Assembly: GCA_035275065.1 (NCBI GenBank)
Contig: DATENM010000023.1
Coordinates: forward strand, 71,215 to 135,214
Reading direction: 5' to 3'
From: Blastocatellia bacterium
Lineage (GTDB): Bacteria; Acidobacteriota; Blastocatellia; UBA7656
Length of the DNA: 64,000 nt
Below the pieces are notes generated by a model. It was not told where the DNA came from and made no database searches. It saw only the letters and a program-made list of their open reading frames with translations. The translations under genes were made by a program, and so were the position numbers. Below, one piece after another: positions 1 to 25,201 of the stretch; the first letter of the stretch is position 1; each line of letters starts with the position of its first letter.

Positions 1-315
1 TTCCACGAAGGCGGGCTCAATACGCACACATGGAAGTTTGTCACTCGCACGAAGCAGTCGAACCTGACGCTCAAGCGGGGCATCGTCAATAAGGCGCTCT
101 GGGACTGGTACCAAGATCAGATACAGGGCAAGATGCGATTCCGCAATGTAACGATCCTTGTCCACGACCCTTCGGGGAAGAGCGATGTACTCGAATTCCA
201 GATCATACAAGCCTTTCCGATCAAATGGGTCGGGCCTGAGCTTAGCGCGGCTCAGAACAATATAGCTGTTGAAACTGTCGAGTTCGCCCATCAAGGGCTC
301 GAACGGATCAAGTGA
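1..315 (+). CDS. Contractile-tail tube protein, C-terminal part (T4 gp19 / Afp1-Afp5 family); 5' end lies outside the window
   Basis: The open frame runs from position 1 to a TGA stop at 313-315. The C-terminal motif ...WVGPELSAAQNNIAVETVEFAHQGLERIK is typical of eCIS and phage tube proteins, and the downstream gene order matches afp5-afp6-afp7. Confidence 0.6.
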   Translation, partial: FHEGGLNTHTWKFVTRTKQSNLTLKRGIVNKALWDWYQDQIQGKMRFRNVTILVHDPSGKSDVLEFQIIQAFPIKWVGPELSAAQNNIAVETVEFAHQGLERIK

Positions 316-363
316 CAATGACCGAACAGGTGAGAATGACAAAACAATTGGAGGCGTAAGCAG

Positions 364-561
364 ATGCCAGTGTTTGTAGAGGAGATGACCAGCGATGTTT
401 CTGTGGCCGAAGGCGAGTTGCCGCTCAGCCCGTCGCAGGTCGAAAAGCTCGTGCAACTGGTCCTGAAAAGGCTCGCCGAAAACCAACGGGACGACAGGCG
501 GAGGCGCGAGGCGATACAGCTTCGCCGGCAAGCCGCCGAGCCGTTCGAGCCGGGTAGCTGA
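364..561 (+). CDS. Small hypothetical protein in the Afp6 position, between the tube and the LysM initiator
   Basis: 65-aa ORF with an RBS-like GGAGG upstream. It is tightly packed between the tube gene and the LysM gene. There is no recognisable domain, so the assignment rests on position only. Confidence 0.4.
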   Translation: MPVFVEEMTSDVSVAEGELPLSPSQVEKLVQLVLKRLAENQRDDRRRREAIQLRRQAAEPFEPGS

Positions 562-570
562 GGACGCCAG

Positions 571-1269
571 ATGTCGCTTCAGAAGGCGGTCATAGAAGTC
601 GATGCCAATGACCGCGGGCCGAACCTGCCCGCGCGAATCGTCGTGCAGTTTAATCCGGCCGAATATACCCTGGCGAAGGGCGCGCAGATTGCCGAGATCG
701 CGATCCCTGGCATCGACTCACCCATACTCCAATTCGTCCGGGGGCAAAATGAGAAGCTGACGCTGGAGCTTTTCTTCGATACGACGCAGTCCGGGATGGG
801 CGAGCAGGCAGTGCGCGACGTGCGCGAATTGACCGACCCGGTTTATCAGCTCGTCAAAATACAGTCGAAGACGCATGCGCCGCCACGCGTTCGCTTCATC
901 TGGGGCAACGGCCTCTCCTTTCGCGCCATAGTCGAGAGCGTTCAGCAAAAATTCACAGTCTTTAACCCGGCAGGGATCCCGCTGCGCGCCGCGCTCGCCG
1001 TTTCCTTCCGCGAGTACAAGACTCTCGAAGAGCAACTCAAAGAGCTGAACCTTCAGTCGGCCGATCACACCAAGCGCCGCAAGGTGCGCCAGGGCGATAC
1101 CCTGGCTCAGATCGCGTTCGAAGAGTACAGGGACGCTTCGAAGTGGCGGCGCATCGCTGAAGAGCCCGCAAACGCAACGGCCCTGGCCGACCCGCGCCGC
1201 CTCGTTCCCGGCACGGAGATCGTCATCCCGGCGCTGGATGTCTTCGGCAACCCGGACCGGAGGACTTAG
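571..1269 (+). CDS. Tube-initiator-like protein with a C-terminal LysM domain (Afp7-like)
   Basis: The N-terminal half is tube-like (QFNPAEYTL..., LTLELFFDT). The C-terminus carries a LysM motif (VRQGDTLAQIAFEEY...WRRIAE...LVPGTEIVIP). The stop codon abuts the next start (TAG then ATG). Confidence 0.7.
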   Translation: MSLQKAVIEVDANDRGPNLPARIVVQFNPAEYTLAKGAQIAEIAIPGIDSPILQFVRGQNEKLTLELFFDTTQSGMGEQAVRDVRELTDPVYQLVKIQSKTHAPPRVRFIWGNGLSFRAIVESVQQKFTVFNPAGIPLRAALAVSFREYKTLEEQLKELNLQSADHTKRRKVRQGDTLAQIAFEEYRDASKWRRIAEEPANATALADPRRLVPGTEIVIPALDVFGNPDRRT

Positions 1270-2394
1270 ATGTCATCGACGGAGGCCGTTCCAATTTACG
1301 GGGGACAGGATTTTTACGTCCCACAATTTCAGGTCAAGATCGCCGGCCGGCCGCCAGGGCAGGACGTGATACGCGACATCCAACAGGTAAGCTATAAGGA
1401 CAATATCCAGGAAATCGACAGCTTCGAGATCACGATCAACAACTGGGACGCGGCCGAGCGCGCCTTTAAGTATAGCGACAGCAACCTGTTCGACCCGGGC
1501 AAGGAATTGGAGCTTTGGATGGGCTATTTCGGCAAGGATAGTTTGCGATTGATGATTCGCGGGCAGATCACGGCGCTGCGCCCTGCCTTCCCCGCCAGCG
1601 GCAGTTCGACGCTCGCCATCAGCGGCCTTAATGTGCTGCACAAACTTCGCACAAAGCAGGAGTCTCATGCTTATGAGAACATGACCGACTCTCAGATCGC
1701 ACGACTGGTCGGCTCCCGGCTCGGCATAAAGATTTTGACCGGGAATGGTGCGGGCGAAGAGAAATACAAGTACATCTTCCAGGATAACCAGTACGACATC
1801 ATCTTTCTCATGGAGCGCGCCCGCCGCATAGGGTATGAGCTTGTAGCCGAGGAACAGGGGCAGAACGGACAGGCCGCAGAGACCGTCCTTAAATTCGCAC
1901 CCTCTTTAAACACCCGCAAGCTCACCTACCGCCTGAGCTACGGGCGCTCGCTCATCGAGTTCAAGCCCGATCTGACAACCGCAAACCAGGTAGGCGAAGT
2001 TACGGTTCGGGGATGGGACTCGCTGAACAAGAAAAAGATCGAGTACACGGCAAAGCGCAGCGAGATAGTCACCAAGGGGGTCGGGGCTGAAGGGAATCAG
2101 TCTGCCATCGAGCAATCATTCAACCAGCGGAAAGAGATCATAGCGACCAAGCCAATCGAGAGCGAGGCCGAGGCGAAAACGCTTGCGGTCCAGACCCTGG
2201 AAAAGATCGCCAAAGATATGGTGAAAGGGAGCGGCTCGACCGTGGGGCTGCCCGACCTGCGCGCGGGCAACGTCGTCGAGATAGATGGGCTCGGAAAGCG
2301 TTTCACCGGCAGGTACTTCATAACCTCCACCACACACGCCATCGGCGATAGCGGGTATACGACGCAGTTCGAATGCCGCCGCGAGGAAATATGA
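1270..2394 (+). CDS. Baseplate hub protein, phage late control gene D / gp27-like (N-terminal VgrG-like module)
   Basis: 374 aa. The C-terminal end (...RFTGRYFITSTTHAIGDSGYTTQFECRRE) is characteristic of the Phage_GPD family. It sits in the Afp8 position. Confidence 0.75.
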   Translation: MSSTEAVPIYGGQDFYVPQFQVKIAGRPPGQDVIRDIQQVSYKDNIQEIDSFEITINNWDAAERAFKYSDSNLFDPGKELELWMGYFGKDSLRLMIRGQITALRPAFPASGSSTLAISGLNVLHKLRTKQESHAYENMTDSQIARLVGSRLGIKILTGNGAGEEKYKYIFQDNQYDIIFLMERARRIGYELVAEEQGQNGQAAETVLKFAPSLNTRKLTYRLSYGRSLIEFKPDLTTANQVGEVTVRGWDSLNKKKIEYTAKRSEIVTKGVGAEGNQSAIEQSFNQRKEIIATKPIESEAEAKTLAVQTLEKIAKDMVKGSGSTVGLPDLRAGNVVEIDGLGKRFTGRYFITSTTHAIGDSGYTTQFECRREEI

Positions 2395-2969
2395 AGCAAC
2401 GAGAAAACGGCATCGTGATCGGTACGGTCATGGACCTTGATGACCCGGAAAAGCTTGGGCGGGTTAAAGTGCGGCTCGCGCAATACAACGACGAGCAGAG
2501 TTGCTGGGCGAGGCTCGTCGCGCCAATGGCGGGAAAGCAGCGCGGCTTTTTCTTCCGGCCTGAAAAAGAAGACGAGGTTCTGATCGCGTTCGAAAACGGA
2601 GACCCGCGCCGCGCCTACGTGCTTGGCGCACTCTGGAGCAAGGTCGATGCCCCGCCGCCGGATGACGGCAAAAAAGATAACAACTGGCGGTTCATCGTCT
2701 CGCGTTCGGGCCACATACTCAAGCTCGATGACACGAGCGGAGCTGAGAAGGTCGAAGTCATAGATAAAAGCGGCAAGCACAAGATCGTGCTCGACGCATC
2801 GGGCGATAAAATCCAGATCATCTGCGACAGCGGGAATGTAGAAGTGAAGGCCCCGGCCGGCTCCGTCAAAGTCGATGCGCAATCAATCGAGATAAACGCA
2901 TCGGCCGACATGACGCTGACGGCCGGGACCCAGCTCAAGATTCAGGGCAACAAGGTAGACATTAACTGA
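2391..2969 (+). CDS. Spike protein, gpV/gp5 OB-fold plus beta-helix (C-terminal VgrG-like module)
   Basis: MKQRENGIVIGTV...GRVKVRL...WARL is a Gp5/VgrG OB-fold. The C-terminal repeats (KVEVIDKSGKHKIVLDASGDKIQIICDSGNVEVKA) fit a beta-helix. The ATG overlaps the upstream stop as ATGA. The ORF track offers an alternative start at 2373. Confidence 0.7.
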   Translation: MKQRENGIVIGTVMDLDDPEKLGRVKVRLAQYNDEQSCWARLVAPMAGKQRGFFFRPEKEDEVLIAFENGDPRRAYVLGALWSKVDAPPPDDGKKDNNWRFIVSRSGHILKLDDTSGAEKVEVIDKSGKHKIVLDASGDKIQIICDSGNVEVKAPAGSVKVDAQSIEINASADMTLTAGTQLKIQGNKVDIN

Positions 2970-2979: not shown

Positions 2980-3369
2980 ATGGGGCAGCCGGCAGCAAAA
3001 CAAGGGGACCGTATTACGGCGACCGACATCCATCTCATACAGCCGCCCGGGCCGAGTTCGCCCGTCCCGACGCCTCACCCGTTCAGCGGGGTCATAGACG
3101 GGAATCTCAGCGGCAACGTCAATATTGAAGGTCGCGCGGCGGCGACCGTGAACAGCACGGCGACCAACACGCCCCCACACATCCCGCAGGGCGGGACGTT
3201 CGTTGTCCCGCCGAAAAACCGCGCGACGATCATCACCGGAAGCCTGACGGTTTCGATCAATGGAAAGCCGGCGGCGCGCTCCGGCGACACCGCGCTGACC
3301 TGCAATGACCCTGTTGATATGCCTGTAGGAACAGTTGTGGCGCAAGGAACGGTGAATATAGGTGGCTGA
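2980..3369 (+). CDS. PAAR-domain spike tip protein
   Basis: 129 aa, Gly-rich, with a literal PAAR motif (INGKPAARSGD) and a further ...GDTALTC motif. Confidence 0.75.
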   Translation: MGQPAAKQGDRITATDIHLIQPPGPSSPVPTPHPFSGVIDGNLSGNVNIEGRAAATVNSTATNTPPHIPQGGTFVVPPKNRATIITGSLTVSINGKPAARSGDTALTCNDPVDMPVGTVVAQGTVNIGG

Positions 3370-3769
3370 CATACGCGGAGATTTCATAGGTCAGGGCTGG
3401 CGGTTTCCGGTCAAGCCTGATTTGCAGGGCCGGTTGAACCTGGTTTCAGGCGACGAGGAGATACGCCAGAGCATATGGCTAATCCTGACGACCGCACCCG
3501 GCGAGCGGCAGATGAGGCCGGAGTTCGGATGCGGCATTTGCGATCTGGTCTTTGATGCAAACACGGCTATGCTGCACGGCCTGGTGCAGGAGAAGGTGAA
3601 GTCGGCCCTTACCAAATGGGAGCCGCGCATAGACGTTATCGATGTGCGGGTTGAAGCGCCGCCCGAACAGCGCAACCTGTTGTTGATCCAGGTCGATTAT
3701 CGCATCCGCGCCAACAACGCTTTTTTCAATCTGGTCTACCCATTCTTCCTGATTGAAGGAGCAGGGTGA
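3362..3769 (+). CDS. Baseplate wedge protein, GPW/gp25 family
   Basis: 135 aa. IRQSIWLILTTAPGER...PEFGCGI is the gp25-like signature. It overlaps the PAAR gene by 8 nt. Confidence 0.8.
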   Translation: MADIRGDFIGQGWRFPVKPDLQGRLNLVSGDEEIRQSIWLILTTAPGERQMRPEFGCGICDLVFDANTAMLHGLVQEKVKSALTKWEPRIDVIDVRVEAPPEQRNLLLIQVDYRIRANNAFFNLVYPFFLIEGAG

Positions 3770-5717
3770 TCGTATGCCTCTCGAAGAGCCAAAACTGGAC
3801 GACCGGGAGTTCGAGCAGTTGGTCAGGGAACTGCGCCTGCGCATCCCGCGCTACACAAAGGACTGGACCAACTTCAACGACAGTGACCCTGGCATCACGC
3901 TGCTACACCTTTTCGCGTGGCTTTCAGAGATGATGCTCTTCCGAATGAATCAGGTCCCGCTCAAGAACTATATAAAGTTCCTGAAACTGCTCGGCCAGGA
4001 ACTCCGGCCGGCGAGACCTGCCAGAGCGCGCCTGACCTTTACGGCAACCCCCGGAGCGCAGGCCAAACCGGTCCCGGAACGGGCGCAGGTTTCCGCGCAG
4101 ATCGATGATGGCGGCGAGCCCCTGATCTTTGAAACTGAAAGAGGGCTGGATGTGATAAGCCTCCCGCTCGAAGACGTGGGCATCTTCGATGGCGCGGCCT
4201 TCATAAATGTAACCGAAGCGAATAAGGCCCCCGGCACAAAGTTCCGCCCGTTCGGGTTTGCCCCCGACGTAGGTAACGCGTTTTATCTGGGGTTCAAGCC
4301 GCCTGACGAGCCGCTCGATGCGCAGGCCGAACCGTTCCCGCAAGAGATGACCTTCGCCGTCTTTTTGCCGCCGGAGACAACTGCCGGAAGGCCGCAGAAA
4401 TGCACAGGCGAGCAGAGCCCGCCCGTGCCCCCTGTCAGTCTCGTCTGGGAATTCCGCCCCAGGGCGAACGACACGACCTGGCAGCGACTGAACGTCTTCG
4501 AAGACGAGACGGCGGCCTTCACTCGCGAAGGATACATCCGCGTGGAAGGGCCGCGGGAGATAGAACCGTCTGTGGAGGCGCGCCTGAGCCCGACGCCTCG
4601 GTTCTGGATTCGCGTGCGGATTGCCGGGCCAGCTACTTACCCGGCGGGCCGAGCTCCGCAGATTGATTTCCTGCGCCCGAATACAGTCAATGCCGTGAAC
4701 CTCAGTACTGTGCGCGGGGAGATACTCGGCGAGAGCCAGGGGCAGCCGGGCGAGCAGTTTCAACTCTTGAGAAAACCCGTTGACAAAGCATCGCTGAAAT
4801 TGAGAACCGAGCTGCCCGACAGCGAGCCCGAACAGTGGACAAAGGTAGAGGATTTTTATGCCTCAAAGGCGGGCGATTCGCATTACACCCTCAACGCCAC
4901 AGCCGCGATCATTCAGTTCGGCGACGGGACGAAGGGCCGCATCCCCGAAGCGGGGGCGCAGGTGATTGCCACGGAATACCGATACGGCGGCGGCGCGCGC
5001 GGCAACAACGCGGGCAAGGGGTCTATAAAGAATCCGCAAACGGTACTGGAAGGCATAGATAAAGTTACCAACGAAAGGCCCGCTGTCGGCGGCGCCGACG
5101 AGCAGACGCTGGAAGAGATAAAAACCGAAGCGCCTTCGCTGCTCAGGCAGCGTAATCGCGCGGTGACGCCAGAGGATTTCAAGGCTTCGGTTGAAGAGAT
5201 GGGCGGTGTGGCTAAAGCGAGGGCCTTGTCGCTGTTCCACCCGGATCATCCGGGCGTAGAGGTGCCCGGCGCTGTCACGGTCGTGATTGTCCCTGACAAT
5301 GAAGAGAAACCACCAAAGCCTTCGGGTGATCTGATTCGCGAAATCTGCGCCGCGCTCGATGAAAAGCGGCTGCTTACGACCGAGGTCTTCGTCAAAGGCC
5401 CCGAGTATCAGGAAGTGCGCGTCGAGGCGCGCGTGACGGCCGAGCCATACGCTTCATTCAATGCCGTCACGATCTCTGTTATCAAAGCACTCGATAAGCT
5501 GCTGGACCCACGCCAGGGAAAATTCGGCGAGGAGCTGTTCCCAACAAGCTTGTACGGCACTATCTTGCAAGTGCCGAGCGTGGTGGCCGTGCTGTCGCTG
5601 AATGTCTTCGTCAACGGCAGGCGGCACGAAGGTCTTAAGCCAATCCAAGTGCCTCTCGACGGTCTGGTCTTCGGCCGTAATCACATCATCACGGTTGAGC
5701 CTCGACAGGATCAATAG
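3753..5717 (+). CDS. Baseplate J-like protein (gp6 / Afp11-like)
   Basis: 654 aa. The N-terminus (EFEQLVRELRLRIPRYTKDWTNFNDSDPGITLLHLFAWLSEMM) is the typical start of the Baseplate_J family. Confidence 0.8.
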   Translation: MKEQGDRMPLEEPKLDDREFEQLVRELRLRIPRYTKDWTNFNDSDPGITLLHLFAWLSEMMLFRMNQVPLKNYIKFLKLLGQELRPARPARARLTFTATPGAQAKPVPERAQVSAQIDDGGEPLIFETERGLDVISLPLEDVGIFDGAAFINVTEANKAPGTKFRPFGFAPDVGNAFYLGFKPPDEPLDAQAEPFPQEMTFAVFLPPETTAGRPQKCTGEQSPPVPPVSLVWEFRPRANDTTWQRLNVFEDETAAFTREGYIRVEGPREIEPSVEARLSPTPRFWIRVRIAGPATYPAGRAPQIDFLRPNTVNAVNLSTVRGEILGESQGQPGEQFQLLRKPVDKASLKLRTELPDSEPEQWTKVEDFYASKAGDSHYTLNATAAIIQFGDGTKGRIPEAGAQVIATEYRYGGGARGNNAGKGSIKNPQTVLEGIDKVTNERPAVGGADEQTLEEIKTEAPSLLRQRNRAVTPEDFKASVEEMGGVAKARALSLFHPDHPGVEVPGAVTVVIVPDNEEKPPKPSGDLIREICAALDEKRLLTTEVFVKGPEYQEVRVEARVTAEPYASFNAVTISVIKALDKLLDPRQGKFGEELFPTSLYGTILQVPSVVAVLSLNVFVNGRRHEGLKPIQVPLDGLVFGRNHIITVEPRQDQ

Positions 5718-5725
5718 GACCGTTT

Positions 5726-8386
5726 ATGCGACTTGAACCTCAAGGTGCGACATTCTGGTTGATCGGCGGCCAGGGCGGCTGGGAGAAGCGAACCGCCGAG
5801 ACGAGCCAGACTGCCGTAAACGACTCTGATGGCGTTCGCCTTGGGGCGGCGCGCGGCGGGCCGCTCTCGCTTGATGCGCCAGATTGCAGCCTCGGAGGTC
5901 TTATTCTTCCTCGCGGCTTTGCGCTCGACGGCCAGAACACTTTGTACCTTTTGAGCCGTGAAGACCTCTGCATCAAACGCTACGACCCGGAGACGCGCAC
6001 ATTTCAACGGCTGCCTGAGATTGGCGGCGCGGGGTCCGAGCCGCGCCAGTTTAAGAAGCCCAGGAACATCGCCATTGCGGGCAAATGGCTTTATGTAGCG
6101 GACTCTGAAAACCGCCGCGTCCAGGTATTTGATCTCGAAAACCTCGCGCTCACTGAAATCTGGGGGCCGACGGGAGCGCGCGCCGAGTGGCAGCCTGTTG
6201 ATGTCGCCGAACACAAAAGGAGTGTTTACATACTCGACCGTCACAAAGCCCGCATCTATCGCCATACGCCCGGAAGCCTTCTTCGAGAGCATTCCTCGTG
6301 TCCCGGCCGCGAGGACCAGTGGACCAGAATTGCGGTTGACCGGGAAGGTCGCATCTACTTGCTCAAAGAGATTAAAGATCAAGAACCTGTCCTTGAGATG
6401 TCTGACTGCAAAGGGCCTGGCTTTAAAGACGCCGGCACGCTTCGCGACCGATTCGACCCTCCGGCAATAAGGCTCGATGAGGCCGGGCGGTTCTGTCTTC
6501 CGCCGTCGCTCGCAAGACTATGCGCTCGGCAAATGCCGCGAGCCGCGCCCGCCCCGGAGGCGCAGCTAGGTCTGTGCGCGCCATTCGATAGGGAGCTGCG
6601 GAGATGTGAAGAACCGGCGGCTCCGAGGACGGTTCGGACCGCGGCAGGAGCTTTCCTGGTCTACGTCCTTGAGCGCGAGCAACGTCGTGTTCGCGCTTAC
6701 ACAATTGATGGGCTAAGACTGCGCCACGCCTGGGGCCACGCACTCGACTGGAAACCGGTCGATGTGGCCGCGCGCGGCATGATGGCCTGTGTGCTAGACG
6801 AAGACGGGACGGTCTATCGACACAGGGCTGGCCGGGAAGAGATACGCGCCGTTGTGCCCACGCGCGAAAGGCCGCCGATCCCTACGCGCATCGCCATTGA
6901 CAATAAAGGAGCGATCCTTCTTCACGCGCCCGGCGAGCCGACGGTCCTTGTCTATGACTGCCGGGAGAGCAGACGCGGGGAGAGACGCTATAGCGAAGTC
7001 GCCGACCTCTTTGAAGCAGCCGAACCGAAGGAAGCGCCCTCGCTATCTACCGGCCTGATCTTTGACAAGCAGGGCGAGCCGGTCGAATCGCTCGACCCAA
7101 AGGATCAGTCAGGGCTTGCGCTGTATCAGACCTCAGGTACGTGGCAGGGCAAACCGCTCGACAGCTCGATCTACAGATGTCAGTGGCATCGCATAGAATT
7201 GAACGCCTCCGGCCTTCCTCCAGGCAGCCGCATCGAAGTGAGAACCTACGCGCACGAGGAAGAGGAAGATGTTATAGGCGTGCCTGACCAACAGTGGCAG
7301 CACGCTTACACAATCCTTGCTCCTATTGAACCGCCACAGTGCGACCAGAAGGATGTTCGTAGATTTGAGTTCCTGGTTCAGAGCGGCAGCGGGCGTTACC
7401 TGTCGATCATGATGAAGCTCGACGCGGACAGCTTCAGCACCCCTGTCGTGCAATCGATCAAGGCGCATTACCCGCGAGAGTCTTATCTGAAATACCTGCC
7501 CGCGGCCTGGTCTGCCGACGACGAGAGTCGCATGTTTTTGGAGCGATTCCTGGCCATCTTCCAGACCGAGTGGGACGACATAGAACTGCGGATCGACGAG
7601 ATCGCGCAATACTTCGATCCCGAAGCGGTGCCGGACGGACCTTTCCTCGAATACCTCGCAAGGCAGTGGCTGGCCTTACCGCTTGAAGGCGACTGGAATC
7701 AAGGCCAGAAACGTAAACTGCTCGCCGCTGTGCCGAAGATATACCCGCATCGCGGCAAGCTTCGCGGCCTGCGCGATTTCATCGCGGTTTATCTGGCGAA
7801 CATGGCGAACCTGCCTGCCGACGAGGTGCGCGGCACGGATTTCCCGGTCATCGTCGAAGGGTTCAGAGAGCGGCAACACCTTATCCTCGCGGAGGGCGCA
7901 AGCAGGCTCGGACAATCAGGACCACCGCTGTGGAGCGCGAGTGTCACAAGAAGGCTGCAACTCGGGGTCTTCTCCCGCGAAGGCGAAGCAGAGCTTGTAT
8001 CTACGGGCGACCCTTCGCGCGACATCTTTCACCACTACGCTCACCGCTTCAGAGTGCTTGTCCCCGCAAGCTGGGTGCGAACCGCCGACGACGAGCGCAA
8101 GATACGGCGCGCGATTGAGGCCGAGAAGCCCGCGCAGACCCGCTATGACCTGTGCTTGCTTGATGCGCGATTCCGAGTCGGCGTGCAATCGACCGTCGGC
8201 GTTGACACGATTATGGGCGAAACGCCACTGACGACGCTGGGCTGTGAACATGTAACGGACCGTCCGCCGAGCCTGCCCCGCAGCGGGCGTCTCGGGTTGG
8301 ACACAATTTTGACTTCGGCCAGGGGAGACATGGTGATGCGACTCGCCCCGGGCGCTACCGTCGGAAAGGGGTCGCTGCTTGCCTAA
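5726..8386 (+). CDS. Large baseplate wedge component (Afp12 / P2 gpI-like), putative
   Basis: 886 aa, placed immediately after Baseplate_J, which is the conserved Afp12 position. There is no sharper domain call from sequence alone. Confidence 0.5.
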   Translation: MRLEPQGATFWLIGGQGGWEKRTAETSQTAVNDSDGVRLGAARGGPLSLDAPDCSLGGLILPRGFALDGQNTLYLLSREDLCIKRYDPETRTFQRLPEIGGAGSEPRQFKKPRNIAIAGKWLYVADSENRRVQVFDLENLALTEIWGPTGARAEWQPVDVAEHKRSVYILDRHKARIYRHTPGSLLREHSSCPGREDQWTRIAVDREGRIYLLKEIKDQEPVLEMSDCKGPGFKDAGTLRDRFDPPAIRLDEAGRFCLPPSLARLCARQMPRAAPAPEAQLGLCAPFDRELRRCEEPAAPRTVRTAAGAFLVYVLEREQRRVRAYTIDGLRLRHAWGHALDWKPVDVAARGMMACVLDEDGTVYRHRAGREEIRAVVPTRERPPIPTRIAIDNKGAILLHAPGEPTVLVYDCRESRRGERRYSEVADLFEAAEPKEAPSLSTGLIFDKQGEPVESLDPKDQSGLALYQTSGTWQGKPLDSSIYRCQWHRIELNASGLPPGSRIEVRTYAHEEEEDVIGVPDQQWQHAYTILAPIEPPQCDQKDVRRFEFLVQSGSGRYLSIMMKLDADSFSTPVVQSIKAHYPRESYLKYLPAAWSADDESRMFLERFLAIFQTEWDDIELRIDEIAQYFDPEAVPDGPFLEYLARQWLALPLEGDWNQGQKRKLLAAVPKIYPHRGKLRGLRDFIAVYLANMANLPADEVRGTDFPVIVEGFRERQHLILAEGASRLGQSGPPLWSASVTRRLQLGVFSREGEAELVSTGDPSRDIFHHYAHRFRVLVPASWVRTADDERKIRRAIEAEKPAQTRYDLCLLDARFRVGVQSTVGVDTIMGETPLTTLGCEHVTDRPPSLPRSGRLGLDTILTSARGDMVMRLAPGATVGKGSLLA

Positions 8387-17564: not shown

Positions 17565-19822
17565 AGTCCCACATGCCTCCAGAAGTCCTGCTGAATCGCG
17601 GCCCATACAGGCGCAGCGCGGAACACTTGCGCGACGAACTTGCACGCGTAGACCTGCTTGTGCGCGCGCAGGTAGTGCGCTGGCGTTTGACCATCGGACA
17701 GACAAAGGCGGAAGAGATGTGGGGCATGGTTTATGTGACCGACGCCGAGATTGACCGGTATATGAGTTCTCCTATCGCGCCGCCCGACCGACTGCCCGAA
17801 TCGTTGCTGCACGCCCTCAAGCCGTTCTGGGAGGCTGAAGCTTTAGCAGGCCGACAAATCCGCGAGAACGTGCAGGCCACGGCTTCTGAAGTCGATCTGA
17901 GGGTGAATTCACTCTCCACAGCATTTCAGCTAACCGACCTTGAGCGAGACCTCGTGCTGGTTTGTTTGCTGGCCGAACTCGACTTCCGCTACCGCCGCAT
18001 GCTCGGTTATCTCCAAGATGATGTTTCCCACAAAAAGCCGCCAGTTGAGCTGCTGCTCCAGATAATGCGCCCGCGGGCCGAATCGCTTGAAGAGGCCCGT
18101 GCGGCATTTGAGCCCGAAGGCACGCTTCTGTCAAAACGGCTTCTTGTCTTGAGCGGCGAAGATGACAATCGCGCAACGCGGTCTGTTCGGCTGGATGAAA
18201 GAATCGCGTCATACCTTCTCGGCTCGGACGGCCTGGACGCTCGCCTATCGAATGTCGTGGTGAGAAGCGCGGAGGCGGTGAAATGGGATGAGCTACTGTT
18301 TGATGATGCGCTCATCGCCCACCTGCGCCACCTGGCGGATTACGTGAGTCTCGGCAAAGCCATCCTGTTTTTTCACGGCCTTCGCGGCAGCGGTCGAGAA
18401 AAGGCTGCGCACGCCATCTGCACTCAAAACGGTATGCAGCTTCTGCGCGTGGACGTGGCGGCGGCCCTTCAGGAACAGACGCGATGGGAGGTTATCGTCG
18501 ATCTCGCGTTTCGAGAAGCGCGGCTCGCCGGGGCCGCCATTTACTGGGCAGATGTCGATCTTCTGCCGCAGGATGAGCAGGCGTCATATCGCGTGGATTA
18601 CCTGCGGCGCGCCGCCGGCAACTTTCAGGGGCTAACGATTCTGTCCGCAACTGTGGCGGGAGAAAGTTACGCGCAGTTTCGCACCTGCCTGCCTCTGCAT
18701 GTCGATTTCCCTGTCCCTCACTTCGAACGCCGCCGCAAGATATGGTTGGCCTATCTGCCGCCCGAAGATGAGCTGCCGAACAGAAATGAAATCGCGGAAA
18801 CGCTTGCCGGGGCGTTTCAGCTCAACGAAGGGCAGGTACGCGATTCGGTCGTCTCTGCGCGAGAGCTTGCGCGGCGGCGCGATGTCTTCAATCCGAAGGT
18901 TACGAGCGAAGACCTCTACGACGCCTGCCGTAAACAGGCCGGTCGTCGCTTGCTCGGATTCGCGCGGCGGATCGAGCCCTCGCGCAAGCTCTCGCTCGAC
19001 GACGTGATCCTGGCCGAGACTAATAAACGGCAGCTTAAGGAGCTATTGAACCGCATACGTCTGCGCAGCCGCCTCTATTCCGAGATGAAATTCGGGCGAA
19101 GCCTCGCCGAGCGCAAGGGCCTGCTGGTTTTGTTCGCCGGCTCGTCCGGCACCGGCAAGACCATGTCGGCCGAGCTGCTTGCCAGCGAAGAGGGGGTTGA
19201 CCTGTATAAGGTTGACCTTTCCGCCATCGTGAGCAAGTGGGTGGGAGAGACTGAAAAGAACCTCAACCGAGTATTTGCGGAAGCTGAGGACTCAAACGCG
19301 CTGCTGTTCTTTGACGAATGCGACGCCCTGTTCGGGCAGCGCGGCGAGATCAGAGAGGCGAAAGACCGGTGGGCCAACCTCGAAGTGAATTACCTTTTAC
19401 AGCGCGTGGAGGAGTATTCAGGGGTAGTCATTATGGCTACGAATCTGAGGCAGAATATCGATGATGCTTTCCTGCGTCGCATTCAAGTCATCATAGAGTT
19501 CCCTTCTCCGGACTCGGAATTACGCTTAAAGATATGGGAGCGGAGTCTCCCGCCGCCGCCACATTCAGACATCAGTGAAGACGATTTGCGAAACGTGGCT
19601 AACCGGTTTGCAATCACTGGTGGCAACATACGCAACATCGTGATCGATGCAGCCTTCCGCGCGCTGGCAGACCACCGTGCGGGGATTACTCTCCGCGACC
19701 TTGTGGATTCAATCGCGCGGGAATACCAGAAGATCGGCAAGCCTATCACTCAGGGAGATTTCGGCAAAGAGTTCTTCGGATGGGTTGTCGCTGATATCCT
19801 CTCTCCTCCCGCTGAAGGGTGA
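17561..19822 (+). CDS. AAA+ ATPase (Afp15 / CDC48-like eCIS assembly ATPase)
   Basis: Walker A is GSSGTGKT and Walker B is LLFFDECD, with a long N-terminal domain. The start MKSHMPPE overlaps the upstream stop. The ORF track offers an alternative start at 17513. Confidence 0.8.
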   Translation: MKSHMPPEVLLNRGPYRRSAEHLRDELARVDLLVRAQVVRWRLTIGQTKAEEMWGMVYVTDAEIDRYMSSPIAPPDRLPESLLHALKPFWEAEALAGRQIRENVQATASEVDLRVNSLSTAFQLTDLERDLVLVCLLAELDFRYRRMLGYLQDDVSHKKPPVELLLQIMRPRAESLEEARAAFEPEGTLLSKRLLVLSGEDDNRATRSVRLDERIASYLLGSDGLDARLSNVVVRSAEAVKWDELLFDDALIAHLRHLADYVSLGKAILFFHGLRGSGREKAAHAICTQNGMQLLRVDVAAALQEQTRWEVIVDLAFREARLAGAAIYWADVDLLPQDEQASYRVDYLRRAAGNFQGLTILSATVAGESYAQFRTCLPLHVDFPVPHFERRRKIWLAYLPPEDELPNRNEIAETLAGAFQLNEGQVRDSVVSARELARRRDVFNPKVTSEDLYDACRKQAGRRLLGFARRIEPSRKLSLDDVILAETNKRQLKELLNRIRLRSRLYSEMKFGRSLAERKGLLVLFAGSSGTGKTMSAELLASEEGVDLYKVDLSAIVSKWVGETEKNLNRVFAEAEDSNALLFFDECDALFGQRGEIREAKDRWANLEVNYLLQRVEEYSGVVIMATNLRQNIDDAFLRRIQVIIEFPSPDSELRLKIWERSLPPPPHSDISEDDLRNVANRFAITGGNIRNIVIDAAFRALADHRAGITLRDLVDSIAREYQKIGKPITQGDFGKEFFGWVVADILSPPAEG

Positions 19823-19823
19823 T

Positions 19824-22800
19824 ATGAGTGCCACTAAGGACCTGTCTTTAGACGTCACCCCGCAGCGCGACCGCCGCCCGCGCGAAGCATCCACCGGTAT
19901 GGATTCAAGCATTGGCGCTGGTCAGTCATTATTCGCTCCTGCGGCAGAGCGCGAAGGTGTCCTGCCTCCGTCTAACGGTGTTCCGTCGGCAGCCCGCGCT
20001 GCCAACCTCATGACCGCTGCGGAAACGTTGCCCGATGTCGCTGCTCGCGCACAGATGAGCATCGCTCTCCAACGCAATGTCGGCAACGCACGCATGGGGG
20101 CCATGTTCGGAGCGATGGCCGGACCTAAGGCTTCTCCGCCTGCACCGCCGCCAATTGCTTCGCCTGCGCAGGAGTCGAATCGCCCATCGCCCATACCTTC
20201 AGCAGTACCGGCACAGCCGGTCAGTCCCGCTGTGCCCCCGACCCAAGTGGAACCTGCCAGGCCCACAGCTCTGCCACCAGCAAAGACCGCGCCTGTGCCG
20301 ACTCTGCTCGCGCCGATCTCACCCGCGCCTACATCGCCCGCCGAGGCTCAGACGGTTCCATTCGCAGCGACACCGGCCAAATCGCAAGAGCCGCCCGTGT
20401 CGGCCAAAAAGGCCGCGACTGGAACTGCCGCGACTGAAAAGGCACCCGAGCCTGGCTCAGAAGAATCAGCCAAATCTGTTGAGGCCGCGCAGCCGGCGAA
20501 GAAAGGCTCGACCGCGCGCGGCGCCAAGCCTGGGGAAAAGGCCGAAGCGGGCAAAGCGCAGACGGCTTCCCCCGAAGGCGCGGCAGAAGAAGGCGGATCG
20601 GGCGCAGGGCGCGGCAAAGGCGGACGTTCGGTTCAGCTTAAGATGCCTGAGCCGCCTTCGGACCTGACGCCAGCCGCTCGCCAGCGTGTTCAAAAAGTGA
20701 AGGCATCGGCTGGCCAGGCGGCAGCCTCGCACGCGGCGTTGCCGTCGGCCCCGGAATCGGTGAAGCAGGCGCGCACCGCCGTGACCGAGCCGCAGCAGGA
20801 AGCCAACGCCCACGCGGGCGCAGACCTGGTTGACGCACTAGGACAACGGCCAAAACCGAGCCCGCAGATCGAGGCAATCTGCGCAGAGATCCGACTGGTG
20901 ATCGAGGAGAAGCGCCCACCTGACGAAAAATCGCTGGTCAAGGCTGACCCGGAACAGATGGGACAGGAGGCTGGCGATAAGGTGAAGGGCAATGTGCAGG
21001 GGGACGTGAAGCGCGTCGATCAGAGCTACGACTCGCTTGAGAAGACGCCCACAGGTACGCCGCAGCAGGGCCAGCCGCTTGAAGCTCTGCCCGCCAGTGC
21101 GCCTGTTCCAGCTATGAATGCGTCCCATGCAGCGCCCGACTCAGTGCCAGCGCAGAACGTCTCGCTTAATCAAGACTCCGAAGATGCCAAAGCGCGCATG
21201 GGCGAGGCAGGCATGAACAAAGCGCCTGCCAAACTGGTCCAGACCGGTCCCGTTGCCGAAGCCCGCGCCGCGCAGGGCGAGCTTGAGAAAACCGCCGCCG
21301 AGGACCCGGCCAAGGTGCTGGCCGCGCAGCAGGCATCATTGAGCAAGGCCAGCGCTGATATGGCGGCATTGCAACAACAGGCGCTCAACGCGCTCGCCAC
21401 CTCGCGCAGCAAGACAGTCTCCGGCACGACCGGCCAGCAGAAGCAGATGGTTGGGTCTGAAGAGCAGAAACGTACACAGGTGAGCGCGCAGGCACAGGCT
21501 ATCTTTACGGGTGCTCAAACTCGCGTCAACGGCCTGCTCCAGACGCTCCCGCAAACCGCCATGCAGAAGTGGGACGCGGGGATCACCATCGCCAAACGTC
21601 AGTTCAAACAAGAACTGAAGACGGTCGAGGAGTGGATCGAAAAGCGCCATGAGAGTATCTTAGTCAGTTTTGCGGACCGGCTCTTTGGTCTGCCTCCGTG
21701 GGTCACCGCCAAATACAACATCGCCGAGAAAAACTTCGGCAACGACGTGTGCAACCTTGCGCGCGAGATTTCTATTGAAGTCAACGGCATCATCATGACG
21801 TGCGAGGCGATTATCGCCGATGCACGGACAAAGATCGCAAATCTCTTTGCTTCGCTGCCCGAAAGCCTGCAAGCGTGGGCCGCTGGCGAGCAAGCAAAGC
21901 TTGGCGCGCAGCTCGATACGCTGCAAAATCACGCGCACGAAGTCCGCGACAACTTTGACCGCGAACTCGTAGGCCGCGCCGCGCAGAGCGTGCAGGAAGT
22001 CCGCGAGGAAATCCACGCGCTGCGTGAGAAGGCGAAGGGGTTCCTCGGCAGGCTCGCCGACGCGATTGATCGTTTCGCCCAAGACCCCGCGAAGTTCATC
22101 CTCGAAGGGTTGCTCGACCTGCTCGGCATCCCGCCCGCCTCGTTCTGGGCGGTGGTGGCGAAGATACAGAAGGTCATCGGCGACATAGCGGACGATCCTG
22201 AGAAGTTCGCCAACAATCTCATGGCCGCCGTCGGCAAGGGGTTCACACAGTTCTTCGACAACATCCTTGACCACCTGCTGCACGGCTTCCTCGATTGGCT
22301 GACGGGCGGGCTGGCGGCGGCCGGCGTCACGCTCCCGAAGGACCTGTCGCTCAAGAGCATCATCACATTCGTCCTGGAGTTGATGGGCATTACGTGGCCG
22401 CGCATTCGAAAACTTCTTGCGAAACACATTGGCGAAGAGAACGTCGCGCTGCTTGAAAAGGCCTATTCCATCGTCGCCAACCTGGTCGCGCTGGGGCCTG
22501 AGGGCATCTTCGAGATGATCAAGGAGAAGTTGAACCCGCAGGAGATTCTCGATCAGATCATCAAGGCGGCAGTAGATTACATGATGAGCGCCATCATCAA
22601 GGCCGTGAGCGCGCGCATCCTCCTGCTGTTCAACCCGGTGGGCGCAATCCTTCAGGCGATTGAGGCAATCTACAAAGTTCTCAAGTGGATCTTCACAAAC
22701 GCGGCGCGCATATTCCGATTGATCGAAACCATCGTGAACGGGATCGCGGACATCATCGCGGGCAACATCGGCGGCATGGCCAACGCTGTCGAGAAAGCAC

Positions 22801-24131
22801 TCGCCGGTCTCATCGCGCCGGTGATAGATTTCCTCGCAGACTACCTCGGCTTCGGCGACCTCCCGAATAAGGTGAAGGAGACTATCCTCGGCTTCCAGGC
22901 GTGGATCGAAGGAATACTCGACCAGGTGATCGGCTGGCTTGTAGAGAAGGGCAAAGCTCTGCTTAAGGCCGTCGGGCTGGGTGGCAAGGAGGGCGAGAAA
23001 AAGCCGGACGAAGGAGAAGTCGGTGAGTCGGTCGCATTTACCGCCGGCGGTGAGCAGCACCGGCTCTGGATTGCGGTTAAGGGCGGCAACGCCGTCATCA
23101 TGCTCGCCAGCGGAGCAGCCGCTCTACTTGACTTCTTGAATAGCGAGCGCGTACAGAAGGCCGTCGATAGTGACGACCAGAAGCCTGCGGATAAAAAGAT
23201 CAAAGACAAGGTGCCACGCGCCAGGGAGCTAGCCAACGAGGCCGATGTTGATGCGGAAAAAGTACTGAGTTTCATGTCGGGGCAAAAAGAGGACGAGGCC
23301 ACGCAAGAGAACAAGAAGGTCAAAACCGTGGAACACCAACTGGCGAACCTATTGACCGACATCCTGGGCGCGATCTCGAAGGACGGACTCACTATTTTTG
23401 ATGTTATAGGGAAGCCGATTGACCCGCTGCCCGAACAGCCGAAGCCAGAAGGATATGTATTTGTAATAAGCCATGGGTTTAAAGAATTGCAGCGAGCGGC
23501 GGGTAGGGGTAAGGAAGGTCCAGAACAATACCCTCAGGTCCACGTCGATGAGGTGGGGATAGTAAAGTCAGGTGCGGGAATACTTCGCTATGATTACGAC
23601 CTCGTCAAGAGGTATAATGCTGCGCTTACGAGGGCGAAGCTGGATGGGGACGAAGCGCCGGGCAATCCAGAAATGCCAGTAAACATGCTTGTGAGCGGCG
23701 CTAATAAACCACCGCATTTTAATGAAGGCATCCGTGCTCAGATGGAGCAACTCATTAGGGAGGTCGACGGCGGACAGAATGTTACCGGTGTAGAAGTAAT
23801 GCTTGGCCGCAAGCGAATCGATTACACGATAACAGTTGATAGGGGTGAAGGGGTAGAGAACGCGCTGGTCGAGTATAAACACTGGACCGGTAATTTGAAG
23901 GATGAGCGGCGCGCAGAGTTAGCCGCAAAACTCTTGACGCAATTGACAGCCTATGTCGATCACGCGCGGACCGGGGGTAATGATTATCGACGTCTGATTA
24001 TCGCGTGGCCGGCATTCTCCAGGTTGGACGCTACCAGCCAAGCCGCGTTCAACAATGTGTTTGAAGCTGTAAAGAAGCATAGCGACAGCAAGCCCGCGAA
24101 CGAAAAGGTCACGATTGAGATTAAGAATTGA
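19824..24131 (+). CDS. Large candidate eCIS cargo protein or effector
   Basis: 1435 aa from MSATKDL, with a GAAGGG RBS. It has IALQRNVGNARM near residue 80 and a ~250-aa P/A-rich segment. The C-terminus has ...TVDRGEGVENALVEYKHW (a D-x13-EYK arrangement). The last ~0.7 kb has visibly lower GC. Confidence 0.45.
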   Translation: MSATKDLSLDVTPQRDRRPREASTGMDSSIGAGQSLFAPAAEREGVLPPSNGVPSAARAANLMTAAETLPDVAARAQMSIALQRNVGNARMGAMFGAMAGPKASPPAPPPIASPAQESNRPSPIPSAVPAQPVSPAVPPTQVEPARPTALPPAKTAPVPTLLAPISPAPTSPAEAQTVPFAATPAKSQEPPVSAKKAATGTAATEKAPEPGSEESAKSVEAAQPAKKGSTARGAKPGEKAEAGKAQTASPEGAAEEGGSGAGRGKGGRSVQLKMPEPPSDLTPAARQRVQKVKASAGQAAASHAALPSAPESVKQARTAVTEPQQEANAHAGADLVDALGQRPKPSPQIEAICAEIRLVIEEKRPPDEKSLVKADPEQMGQEAGDKVKGNVQGDVKRVDQSYDSLEKTPTGTPQQGQPLEALPASAPVPAMNASHAAPDSVPAQNVSLNQDSEDAKARMGEAGMNKAPAKLVQTGPVAEARAAQGELEKTAAEDPAKVLAAQQASLSKASADMAALQQQALNALATSRSKTVSGTTGQQKQMVGSEEQKRTQVSAQAQAIFTGAQTRVNGLLQTLPQTAMQKWDAGITIAKRQFKQELKTVEEWIEKRHESILVSFADRLFGLPPWVTAKYNIAEKNFGNDVCNLAREISIEVNGIIMTCEAIIADARTKIANLFASLPESLQAWAAGEQAKLGAQLDTLQNHAHEVRDNFDRELVGRAAQSVQEVREEIHALREKAKGFLGRLADAIDRFAQDPAKFILEGLLDLLGIPPASFWAVVAKIQKVIGDIADDPEKFANNLMAAVGKGFTQFFDNILDHLLHGFLDWLTGGLAAAGVTLPKDLSLKSIITFVLELMGITWPRIRKLLAKHIGEENVALLEKAYSIVANLVALGPEGIFEMIKEKLNPQEILDQIIKAAVDYMMSAIIKAVSARILLLFNPVGAILQAIEAIYKVLKWIFTNAARIFRLIETIVNGIADIIAGNIGGMANAVEKALAGLIAPVIDFLADYLGFGDLPNKVKETILGFQAWIEGILDQVIGWLVEKGKALLKAVGLGGKEGEKKPDEGEVGESVAFTAGGEQHRLWIAVKGGNAVIMLASGAAALLDFLNSERVQKAVDSDDQKPADKKIKDKVPRARELANEADVDAEKVLSFMSGQKEDEATQENKKVKTVEHQLANLLTDILGAISKDGLTIFDVIGKPIDPLPEQPKPEGYVFVISHGFKELQRAAGRGKEGPEQYPQVHVDEVGIVKSGAGILRYDYDLVKRYNAALTRAKLDGDEAPGNPEMPVNMLVSGANKPPHFNEGIRAQMEQLIREVDGGQNVTGVEVMLGRKRIDYTITVDRGEGVENALVEYKHWTGNLKDERRAELAAKLLTQLTAYVDHARTGGNDYRRLIIAWPAFSRLDATSQAAFNNVFEAVKKHSDSKPANEKVTIEIKN

Positions 24132-24140
24132 GTCTGCGAA

Positions 24141-24869
24141 ATGATAGACATGTTAGAGATAGATACACTGATTGGAGGGTCGCTTTATTTTCAGCAACCA
24201 CTTTCATCCAAGGATGGTCTCCGCCTGATTAAGCTCGCAATCGAAGGGCTAGGCCCGTACATGGGTGTGCCATTTAAGGCATACCTTGACCACCAGTCTG
24301 ACATACTTACCAAACAGGACGCAGCCGCATTTGAAGCGAGCGGACAGGCAATTATCTTCAACCATGAGCCACTGGCTCGCGAAATGAATAGATCGACCTT
24401 CTTCCTGACCCACTCTTACCTTGGCACGCATCCGGACGTGAAACAGATTCGCGTATACCCGTCTGTGATTGCCAGTGGGCCGGAACTAGATCGGGTTTGG
24501 GATTTCATGACAGATGTGATGCCACGATTCGTCGAAGCTACTCAACCCGGTCTCGCCATGGCTACAGGCTCGCCCGAAGAGGATGATTATACTGAATACC
24601 TTCCGAACGCTGCGGAGATACATCCGGGAGAACTGCCGCCTTTTTTTACCCCCTGGAACTACATAGGCCCCGATTGCCTGACGCAAGAGCGGCGGCGCTT
24701 TCTCGACCGGCTCCCCGCAACGCGGTCTGAGCCGTTCGGCGAGGGGTGGCTACTACAGGTGGTCAGGAGCCTTTCGCAATGGCCGAGCCCTGAGTTTCTA
24801 GAAAGATTGCGTTCGGCTCCCAACCCACAACCGGTCGGCTACCGCCAGCCCAGAATAGATGAGCAATGA
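24141..24869 (+). CDS. Hypothetical protein downstream of the candidate effector (possible immunity, chaperone or cap protein)
   Basis: 242-aa ORF with lower GC than the structural genes and no recognisable domain. Confidence 0.4.
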   Translation: MIDMLEIDTLIGGSLYFQQPLSSKDGLRLIKLAIEGLGPYMGVPFKAYLDHQSDILTKQDAAAFEASGQAIIFNHEPLAREMNRSTFFLTHSYLGTHPDVKQIRVYPSVIASGPELDRVWDFMTDVMPRFVEATQPGLAMATGSPEEDDYTEYLPNAAEIHPGELPPFFTPWNYIGPDCLTQERRRFLDRLPATRSEPFGEGWLLQVVRSLSQWPSPEFLERLRSAPNPQPVGYRQPRIDEQ

Positions 24870-25201
24870 CGTTGGCGAATTTCAGTCTTTGGACAGACAC
24901 CGCCCGCACGCGGTTCTTCCTTATCCCTGACGACAAGCAATTTCCACTCGGTGACTTCGTGCTGCGCACGCTCACGGGCCGGGAGATGGAGGTTGACCCA
25001 ACCGCTCTGGCTGAGTACGAAATAAGCGAGCAGGAAGCAAAGGGATGGCTCAAGGGCGAATTCGGCAAGATGCTTGACGGCGCGCGGGCAGTAGCAGATC
25101 GGTTCATCGAGAAACTGAGACAGGGGCCGCCAGGGCCGGCCGAAGATAAGAAAACAGAAGATAAGAAAATGACAGACACGAAAGAATCAGGCGACTCGTG
25201 A
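24866..25201 (+). CDS. Small hypothetical protein with an acidic, Lys/Glu-rich C-terminal tail
   Basis: 111-aa ORF that overlaps the previous stop. There is no domain call. Confidence 0.35.
   Translation: MTLANFSLWTDTARTRFFLIPDDKQFPLGDFVLRTLTGREMEVDPTALAEYEISEQEAKGWLKGEFGKMLDGARAVADRFIEKLRQGPPGPAEDKKTEDKKMTDTKESGDS

Follow-up and report, generated by a model that had tools for sequence, protein, structure and literature searches.

A probable chromosomal contractile injection system operon of a Blastocatellia bacterium, with a Tail_P2_I-type wedge, a split spike and several fibre-like genes

The phylum Acidobacteriota is abundant in soil, its members are hard to grow and little is known of their interactions with other cells. 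Blastocatellia constitute a class within this phylum, and the DNA described here, referred to hereafter as the window, is a stretch of 64,000 nucleotides from a Blastocatellia bacterium (contig DATENM010000023.1, positions 71,215 to 135,214 of the forward strand). The plus strand of its positions 1-25201 carries an unbroken series of 18 collinear genes, the first of which is cut by the window start. Taken jointly, the evidence is best explained if this series is the distal three quarters of a chromosomal contractile injection system (CIS) operon and no part of a prophage, a reading that we regard as probable and that is developed below from the genes, their relatives and the solved systems.

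The junctions between the 18 genes, measured with the start codons from public gene calls on the same DNA, all lie within -8 to +48 nucleotides (nt), with four overlaps of 4 or 8 nt each, and the G + C content across the operon is 54-63%. Genes packed so closely on one strand fit a single operon, as the initial annotation had proposed from overlapping and abutting junctions. The same annotation took the DNA for that of an acidobacterium-like genome, which is borne out by a 672-residue protein of the operon that is 100% identical to a protein of an NCBI "Blastocatellia bacterium" metagenome-assembled genome (locus tag VJ464_04370, on a contig of 223 kb) and by the closest loci (75-84% identity), which come from Pyrinomonadaceae, Blastocatellia and other Acidobacteriota. 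It had also placed the sheath and the first tube gene upstream of the window, and both were found there, together with a cap gene, on L082, a locus from a 35-kb Logan assembly contig (SRR5195144) that is identical to the window across 15,717 bases and reaches 6.2 kb upstream. Exact-sequence look-ups led to this DNA through the Baseplate_J and 672-residue proteins and gave nothing for the Afp7-like, hub and PAAR proteins. The order on L082 is the end of a 265-residue gene (the homologue of which in L004, the closest genome in the GTDB set, resembles a coiled coil), DUF3467, a Pvc16_N cap (741-1334), a CarboxypepD_reg protein, a sheath, a tube gene of 144 residues, a second sheath and the tube gene that the window truncates. 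The two sheaths (Phage_sheath_1/1C; 547 and 562 residues) are both outside the window, and the truncated tube gene has a full length of 146 residues (L082 6102-6542), starting 125 nt before the window. The same layout was confirmed by hmmscan in L004, where Pvc16_N scores 8.7e-37. The CarboxypepD_reg (Ig-like) protein between the cap and the first sheath has about 310 residues (L082 1366-2301, L004 4570-5499) and occupies a position that is empty in the Afp and PVC systems. The features in and around the window part of the operon are listed in Table 1.

Table 1. Genes and features of the CIS locus. Positions refer to the window unless a relative's locus is named; values after family names are E-values.
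Feature	Positions	Strand	Basis
Second tube (gp19-like) gene, tube or tube-initiator paralogue, C-terminal 104 residues	1-315	+	Pfam Phage_T4_gp19 3e-24
65-residue protein in Afp6 position; may be a spike plug	364-561	+	Position only; no family match (Pfam, NCBIfam)
Afp7/Cis7-like tube initiator with C-terminal LysM-like segment	571-1269	+	Pfam CIS_tube 6e-35
Hub half of split VgrG/Cis8 (gp27/gpD-like)	1270-2394	+	NCBIfam VgrG_rel 1e-42
Spike half of split VgrG/Cis8 (gp5-like OB fold and beta-helix), 4-nt overlap with hub gene	2391-2969	+	Pfam Phage_base_V 4e-27
PAAR tip protein	2980-3369	+	Pfam PAAR_motif 1.5e-14
gp25-like sheath initiator (Afp9/Cis9 equivalent), after PAAR	3362-3769	+	Pfam GPW_gp25 7e-28
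Baseplate_J wedge protein (Cis11 equivalent, 647 residues)	3774-5717	+	Pfam Baseplate_J 3e-17
Tail_P2_I-type wedge protein (Cis12/TssG-like)	5726-8386	+	Pfam Tail_P2_I 1e-5, 25.9 bits against a cut-off of 20.6, residues 605-688
Fibre-like paralogue 1: N-terminal baseplate anchor and acidic Cys-rich C-terminal part	8403-9800	+	NCBIfam CIS13_fam 1e-22, N-terminal ~80 residues only
Fibre-like paralogue 2: anchor, Pro/Thr-rich linker, C-terminal helix-hairpin-helix	9820-11712	+	CIS13_fam 4e-10
Fibre-like paralogue 3 (838 residues): anchor and long C-terminal region	11728-14244	+	N-terminal alignment with the other three; no family match
Fibre-like paralogue 4 (417 residues), short C-terminal part	14272-15525	+	CIS13_fam 4e-6; N-terminal alignment
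672-residue protein in Afp14 position; stop overlaps ATPase start by 4 nt	15546-17564	+	Position; no family match
Afp15/Cis15-like AAA+ ATPase with N-terminal winged-helix domain	17561-19822	+	Pfam WHD 1.6e-39, AAA 1.2e-27
Predicted polymorphic cargo/effector (1435 residues), four modules	19824-24131	+	Alignment A1 and 57 core homologues
Effector N-terminal module (~95 residues, conserved)	19824-20108	+	LQRNVGNA motif at 20067-20090
Effector Pro/Ala-rich linker, variable	20109-20618	+	Alignment A1
Effector amphipathic-helix core (~830 residues; residues 270-1096)	20631-23111	+	Strongly conserved; nearly invariant at 770-1050
Effector variable C-terminal toxin-like domain	23271-24128	+	Alignment A1
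Putative cognate immunity protein (242 residues)	24141-24869	+	Co-variation with effector C-terminal domain
Last operon gene (111 residues)	24866-25201	+	Conserved position; no family match
Sigma-54 enhancer-binding response regulator (REC, AAA+ with GAFTGA, HTH_8), convergent	25240-26571	-	Pfam Response_reg, Sigma54_activat, HTH_8; GAFTGA in translation
Sigma-54-like element and dyads	L004 2600-2845; L001 2089-2224; L002 2490-2720		Before first operon gene

As judged from family matches in the window and upstream, the core set of the CIS and extracellular CIS (eCIS) superfamily is present, that is, sheath, gp19 tube, CIS_tube initiator, spike, PAAR, gp25, Baseplate_J, ATPase and cap. Nearly all of the families expected by the initial annotation were recovered in profile searches; the LysM match in the Afp7-like protein (20.8 bits) is slightly below the cut-off, and Pfam Phage_GPD gave no match to the hub gene, which was identified through NCBIfam and the solved spikes instead. 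In phmmer comparisons with solved structures the best match of the Afp7-like protein is 9gtp_P of CIS-Sc, the Streptomyces coelicolor system (2e-20), followed by 9rce, the Anabaena tCIS and AlgoCIS. The 65-residue protein in the Afp6 position recurs at the same position in many related loci at 49-81% identity.

The spike is encoded by two genes. The hub gene aligns with residues ~28-345 of the single-chain spikes of AlgoCIS, CIS-Sc, tCIS and PVC, and the spike half aligns with residues ~375-557 of solved spikes, including Afp8 (1.7e-13) and Pvc8 (5.7e-11). A frameshift or a pseudogene behind this split was considered and rejected, because hub and spike are separate open reading frames in 76 of 76 related loci; the split is therefore a trait of the lineage, by which it differs from every solved CIS, all of which have a single-chain spike.

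Of the two wedge proteins, the Baseplate_J protein matches CIS-Sc Cis11 (9gtp_1K) over residues 1-640 (phmmer, 2e-54), while its match to AlgoCIS reaches just 5e-5. The Tail_P2_I protein gave no phmmer match to the 9GTP chains. It carries an N-terminal extension of about 600 residues, within which residues 47-186 match NHL beta-propeller structures (1e-19), and this extension may serve the baseplate as an additional binding module. The NHL part (window 5864-6284) matches the eukaryotic proteins Thin and TRIM71 (1e-19 to 1e-10); the extension is kept in the acidobacterial loci L083 and L085, where the NHL matches are faint.

The wedge genes are followed, in the Afp13 position, by four fibre-like paralogues that share an N-terminal domain of about 90 residues, in which G52, G56, L57, G77, D81 and G84 are invariant in 16 sequences (alignments A2 and A5), and all four genes keep their position in the acidobacterial relatives L083-L085. 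Three of the four have a CIS13_fam match at the N-terminus. The anchor profile A5 matches the N-terminus of the tCIS protein All3314 (7b5h_AA residues 12-104, E = 3e-4) and, more weakly, that of 9wt0_a, a 1443-residue PKD-domain protein (E = 0.03). By their sequences the fibre-like proteins thus fit anchors of the Cis19/Alg19 type (eBAP-like), unlike those of the Afp13/Pvc13 type. In a Kyte-Doolittle scan (19-residue window, mean >= 1.6), no transmembrane segment passed the threshold in any of the four, and a tCIS-like membrane anchoring was rejected on this ground. The C-terminal parts differ. That of paralogue 3 resembles beta-sandwich repeats by eye, and paralogue 1 gave nothing meaningful in the PDB sequence search. 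The helix-hairpin-helix of paralogue 2 (window 11512-11623; HHH_5 7e-6, 26.9 bits against a cut-off of 27) is a motif usually tied to DNA binding and is surprising for a fibre; it is found in L084 and is missing from L083 and L085.

This arrangement is already known, because multi-fibre Tail_P2_I loci have been reported: Tail_P2_I loci use eBAP3-5 anchors, with up to four fibres per baseplate and up to five fibre genes per locus (Nachmias et al. 2026, PMC12923769). The loci with eBAP3 or eBAP5 likewise have fibre genes directly downstream of Tail_P2_I and several of them per locus, four being present here, and the anchor N-terminus is related to that of the tCIS crown protein, as in eBAP3-5 loci, a likeness by description and position. 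Pfam DUF6519 (eBAP5) gave no match in the operon proteins, and Acidobacteria are not mentioned in the main text of that survey.

Next to the ATPase gene lies that of the 672-residue protein, which has no family match in Pfam and NCBIfam and gave nothing meaningful in the PDB sequence search. No relatives were found in a metagenome scan with this protein, and its homologues amount to 29 in all, those with a source name or contig context being from acidobacterial-type loci. Its AlphaFold2 model, built from 21 sequences (predicted local distance difference test score, pLDDT, 80.8), is globular, with about 30 short helices and a few strands. A tape measure would be expected to form one long, uninterrupted helix, which the modelled fold does not; the protein might conceivably be an assembly or loading partner of the ATPase.

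The gene starting 1 nt past the ATPase stop encodes the 1435-residue predicted effector, of which alignment A1 (this protein with three acidobacterial orthologues) distinguishes four modules. The conserved N-terminal ~95 residues contain ARAQMSIALQRNVGNARM, and the linker that follows varies greatly in length among orthologues; because this linker is rich in Pro and Ala, the 20-22 kb bin, with which the low-complexity stretch coincides, is anomalous in composition (G + C 0.63, AT skew +0.25). The C-terminal ~350 residues differ between loci. The core is found in 57 homologues. About 20 of them carry an N-terminal LQ[RQ]xxGN[AST] module; in about a dozen longer homologues, this is replaced by DUF4157/eCIS_core with HExxH, and no homologue that bears DUF4157 contains the motif. 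Some core homologues end in Ntox15, Endonuclea_NS_2 or AHH, and the core is 45-57% identical to the "linker" of the DUF4157 proteins with such ends. A core profile matched apolipoproteins only, reflecting amphipathic-helix composition, and the PDB sequence search with the effector gave nothing meaningful. The C-terminal domain is rare: a homologue search with the toxin domain alone gave one protein, and the family became visible only in an exhaustive search of 1.84 billion representatives, with 22 clusters. In these it ends long proteins, two of the 22-cluster set carrying eCIS_core. D184, E201 and K203 are invariant in the domain and form a PD-(D/E)xK-like motif, and the structure model is weak (pLDDT 68.5).

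An architecture of DUF4157, long linker and toxin was described by Geller et al. 2021 (PMC8213781), and the effector here shares with such proteins the core, the exchangeable C-terminus and the place at the operon's 3' end, whereas the ~95-residue LQ[RQ]xxGN[AST] module replaces DUF4157/HExxH. By description, it is also like the Sle1-type effectors of actinobacteria (PMC13277306) in being helix-rich, with hydrophobic helices and a variable C-terminal domain; in Micromonospora eburnea, the C-terminal domain of such an effector is thought to act on nucleic acids and an immunity gene lies downstream. The Sle1 gene, however, is upstream of the sheath beside a small DUF4157 protein, Sle2, whereas the effector gene here comes after that of the ATPase, and the covered part of the locus contains no gene for a DUF4157 protein.

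The next gene encodes the 242-residue protein, homologues of which follow the same effector C-terminal domain in L085 (43% identity) and L086 (26%, 3e-14), while L083 and L084 have other effector C-termini and unrelated downstream genes. Because the 242-residue gene co-varies with the C-terminal domain of the effector, the two most likely represent a polymorphic toxin and its immunity protein, as far as sequences tell. Whichever type of toxin is present, the 111-residue last gene recurs (34-77% identity) behind each of the effector/immunity pairs examined, and it is found in distant GerE-regulated loci as well. A more distant locus, L087 (5447-14643), has two tandem modules of effector and small gene, with a GerE regulator and flagellar export genes adjoining, and has neither ATPase nor 672-residue gene between fibre genes and effectors.

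The convergent gene of a sigma-54 activator lies 38 nt past the end of the operon, and each of the three acidobacterial relatives examined (L083, L084 and L085) has such an activator as the neighbour. In L085 its gene is on the operon strand, not convergent, and an IS-type transposase gene (rve, HTH_32; 19791-21101) stands between it and the operon end. In three of the four closest relatives with 5' ends (L001, L002 and L004), the first operon gene is preceded, at a distance of 30-55 nt, by (T/G)GGAAC-N6-TGCA. Inverted repeats (TGTAACA/TGTTACA) that lie 100-200 nt farther upstream are plausible candidates for binding sites of the conserved activator. The activator is probably the regulator of the operon, acting on a sigma-54 promoter before the first gene. 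No convincing sigma-54 promoter was found within the window or the 6.2 kb upstream. More distant loci use GerE regulators, and regulators of RfaH, GerE and BTAD types are listed for eCIS (PMC8213781); the adjacent regulator here belongs to none of these, unlike in Afp/PVC.

A scan with one genome per species gave 103 related loci, of which 80 were kept. The order Afp7-hub-spike-(PAAR)-gp25-BaseplateJ-P2_I-fibre-fibre is conserved in about 70 of the 80, from Acidobacteriota, Chloroflexota, Actinomycetota (Streptoalloteichus, Saccharopolyspora, Kutzneria and others), Planctomycetota, Proteobacteria and Firmicutes; the locus belongs to a widespread, horizontally spread lineage. The initial annotation had called it an eCIS locus of Afp/PVC type with the gene order afp5-afp15. 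The order holds broadly, except that PAAR comes before gp25, Afp8 is split, four genes take the Afp13 position and a homologue of Afp14 is not demonstrable. The type is too specific, because the spike is split, the wedge is of Tail_P2_I type and the best solved match is CIS-Sc; in addition, the Baseplate_J and Afp7-like proteins gave no phmmer match at E <= 0.01 to the Afp/PVC chains (Afp11/Pvc11 and Afp7/Pvc7), and the fibre anchors are of another kind. Sequence comparison instead places the locus in a Tail_P2_I-wedge, split-spike branch of the CIS superfamily, nearer to the Streptomyces system than to Afp/PVC.

With the Afp and PVC systems (Serratia and Photorhabdus; type Ia), the locus shares the families of tube, Afp7, Afp8, PAAR, gp25, Baseplate_J, AAA+ ATPase and cap, as well as effector genes at the 3' end. 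It differs from them in the swapped order of gp25 and PAAR, the split Afp8, the Tail_P2_I wedge, the fibre anchors and the cap gene, which is at the 5' end here and at the 3' end in Afp/PVC. CIS-Sc (type IId, PDB 9GTP/9GTR, PMC12237407) is the best solved match for the Baseplate_J and Afp7-like proteins, on pairwise evidence. Its wedge consists of two Cis11 and one Cis12 in a pyocin-like manner (PMC12237407), and a wedge that pairs Baseplate_J with a Tail_P2_I protein, a Pvc16-type cap and the lack of a recognisable tape-measure gene are common to both. In contrast, Cis8 of CIS-Sc is a single chain of 643 residues, encoded here by two genes; the locus has two sheath paralogues; and CIS-Sc has no fibre genes, whereas four fibre-like genes follow the baseplate genes here. 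CIS-Sc also requires the membrane protein CisA, whereas the hydropathy scan gave no strong transmembrane prediction for any gene here. As to the Anabaena tCIS (PDB 7B5H, PMC8894136), its chains are matched by the Afp7-like and spike proteins and its All3314 by the anchor profile, but tCIS Cis13 has an anchoring transmembrane helix (PMC8894136) that none of the four paralogues has.

By homology, the components of a contractile particle are shown, together with an ATPase of Afp15 type and an eCIS-family effector, and from these the following picture of the machine may be drawn. As far as it is covered, the operon begins about 6 kb before the window and encodes a cap, two sheaths, two gp19 tubes and an Afp7-like initiator. 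It also encodes a VgrG-like spike formed from two polypeptides, the hub and the OB/beta-helix part, and sharpened by PAAR, and gp25 as the initiator of the sheath. Baseplate_J and the TssG-like Tail_P2_I protein make up the wedge, on which the four fibre-like proteins, with their differing C-terminal parts, would sit by the shared anchor. The AAA+ ATPase, perhaps with the translationally coupled 672-residue protein, would assemble or load the particle; the 1435-residue protein would be the cargo, its N-terminal module possibly being a loading signal, and the 242-residue protein would confer immunity against the exchangeable C-terminal toxin domain. Expression would start from a sigma-54 promoter before the first gene, activated by the convergent response regulator, and the contracting sheath would push the tube, with spike and cargo, into a target. 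Given the immunity partner of the toxin and the lack of a membrane anchor in the fibre-like proteins, this target is most likely another bacterium, although extracellular action of the CIS is an assumption here, where the system is known from its genes.

This picture may be extended to a DUF4157-independent cargo platform, in which the ~95-residue module is the loading signal, the core a tape-measure-like carrier in the lumen, the toxin rare and exchangeable, the 672-residue protein a loading adaptor and the two-component sigma-54 system the switch; the combination as a whole is conceivable, though we consider it rather doubtful.

Several observations weigh against the reading of a toxin-delivering, regulated CIS. 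The effector is without the class-marking DUF4157, having no match to PF13699 even at E <= 5 and no HExxH, and L087, which carries the same toxin domain, has no detectable homologue of the 242-residue protein. No more than three close relatives show the sigma-54 promoter motif, and its number across the whole set of loci does not exceed chance, so that its position alone is telling. A tape-measure gene was not identified; the protein in the Afp14 position models as globular. Furthermore, the nearest solved system, CIS-Sc, is a cytoplasmic one (PMC12237407), the related systems of Chloroflexota and Deinococcota are intracellular as well (PMC12998442) and no lysis genes were seen in the operon; for these reasons, release of the particle is unproven.

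The last of these points leads to the strongest of the other explanations, namely that the CIS, like CIS-Sc, stays inside its producer and fires at or through the producer's own membrane under stress, bringing about regulated cell death or remodelling. It is a possibility to be taken seriously, although it is not the one we expect. The best solved match of both the Baseplate_J and the Afp7-like proteins is CIS-Sc; a Roseiflexaceae locus (L011) has the same gene order, including fibre-like homologues; the CIS of Roseiflexus and Deinococcota have been imaged free in the cytoplasm (PMC12998442); and an effector/immunity pair is found in an actinobacterial SLP-like system too (PMC13277306), while a lysis cassette is missing from the operon as seen. 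Nevertheless, Cis8 is fused in CIS-Sc, which has no fibre genes and depends on CisA (PMC12237407), in contrast to the split Cis8 and four fibre-like genes here; hydrophobic segments are absent above threshold from the fibre-like proteins and weak in Baseplate_J, the 672-residue protein and the effector; and the placement near type IId comes from pairwise matches. Moreover, co-variation of an immunity gene with a polymorphic toxin is the signature of intercellular antagonism. The fibre-like proteins without anchors and the toxin/immunity pair favour an attack on other cells, whereas the nearest characterised relatives favour a cytoplasmic role.

According to another explanation, which we hold to be unlikely, the 1435-residue protein would serve chiefly as the tape measure and bear a fused toxin, its 830-residue helical core setting the length of the tube and being expelled on firing. 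No other candidate for the ruler is at hand, with the 672-residue protein being globular, and CIS-Sc is also without an annotated tape measure (PMC12237407). The core is rich in helices, with amphipathic apolipoprotein-like stretches and two hydrophobic segments, and tape-measure-related effectors with variable C-termini are described for actinobacterial CIS (PMC13277306). Yet neither sequence nor profile searches gave a match to any tape-measure protein, deletion of Sle1/Sle2 left the SLP particles unaltered (PMC13277306), homologues of the core carry the effector-marking DUF4157, and the tandem copies in some loci (L087) would be odd for a length ruler.

That the locus is a prophage tail module or an R-type tailocin and no toxin-delivering CIS was rejected as very improbable: every structural gene is indeed a phage-tail homologue and a wedge of Baseplate_J and Tail_P2_I is reported to resemble the baseplate of pyocin R2 (PMC12237407), but an Afp15-type AAA+ ATPase, a Pvc16_N cap, a CIS_tube Afp7-like protein and an eCIS-family effector are present, capsid, portal and terminase genes were found neither in the 6.2 kb upstream nor in window 25-56 kb nor in the upstream flanks of the relatives, integrase and lysis genes are likewise missing from the 6.2 kb upstream, the 39 kb downstream and the relatives' flanks, and the relatives carry the cluster in unrelated neighbourhoods without phage genes (in eight of them, upstream housekeeping genes that are different in each genome). 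The choice of the initial annotation between a CIS operon and the tail of a prophage is thus upheld.

Under the reading as a toxin-delivering CIS, a lineage of the Blastocatellia is equipped with a complete injection machine, together with a polymorphic toxin and what is probably an immunity gene, which points to bacterial antagonism in this group. The gains are modest ones: a corrected class (Tail_P2_I wedge, split spike and several fibres, not Afp/PVC-like), a DUF4157-less variant of the long eCIS effectors with a rare toxin module, and the hypothesis of sigma-54/two-component control, which is not listed for eCIS in the survey PMC8213781. A further detail that stands out is the ATPase-coupled 672-residue protein, the fold of which is novel by its model. 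The general picture of CIS biology is unchanged, since the lineage is widespread in public genomes and the type of baseplate and fibres is already catalogued.

The rest of the window contains genes of a pirin, cytochrome P460, histidine kinases, hydrolases, an outer-membrane barrel, an MFS transporter and a GH43 protein. A 1072-residue sensor kinase (Reg_prop/Y_Y_Y propellers, HisKA_3) and, after it, a second HisKA_3 kinase lie at 31782-36445, both less than 10 kb from the response-regulator gene and with no obvious link to the CIS operon. Cytochrome P460 is represented by two paralogues 11 kb apart (29799-30374, 3e-35, and 41091-41738, 3e-34), in the surroundings of which are a cNMP-binding pyridine-nucleotide-disulphide oxidoreductase, AhpC/TSA and a zinc alcohol dehydrogenase.

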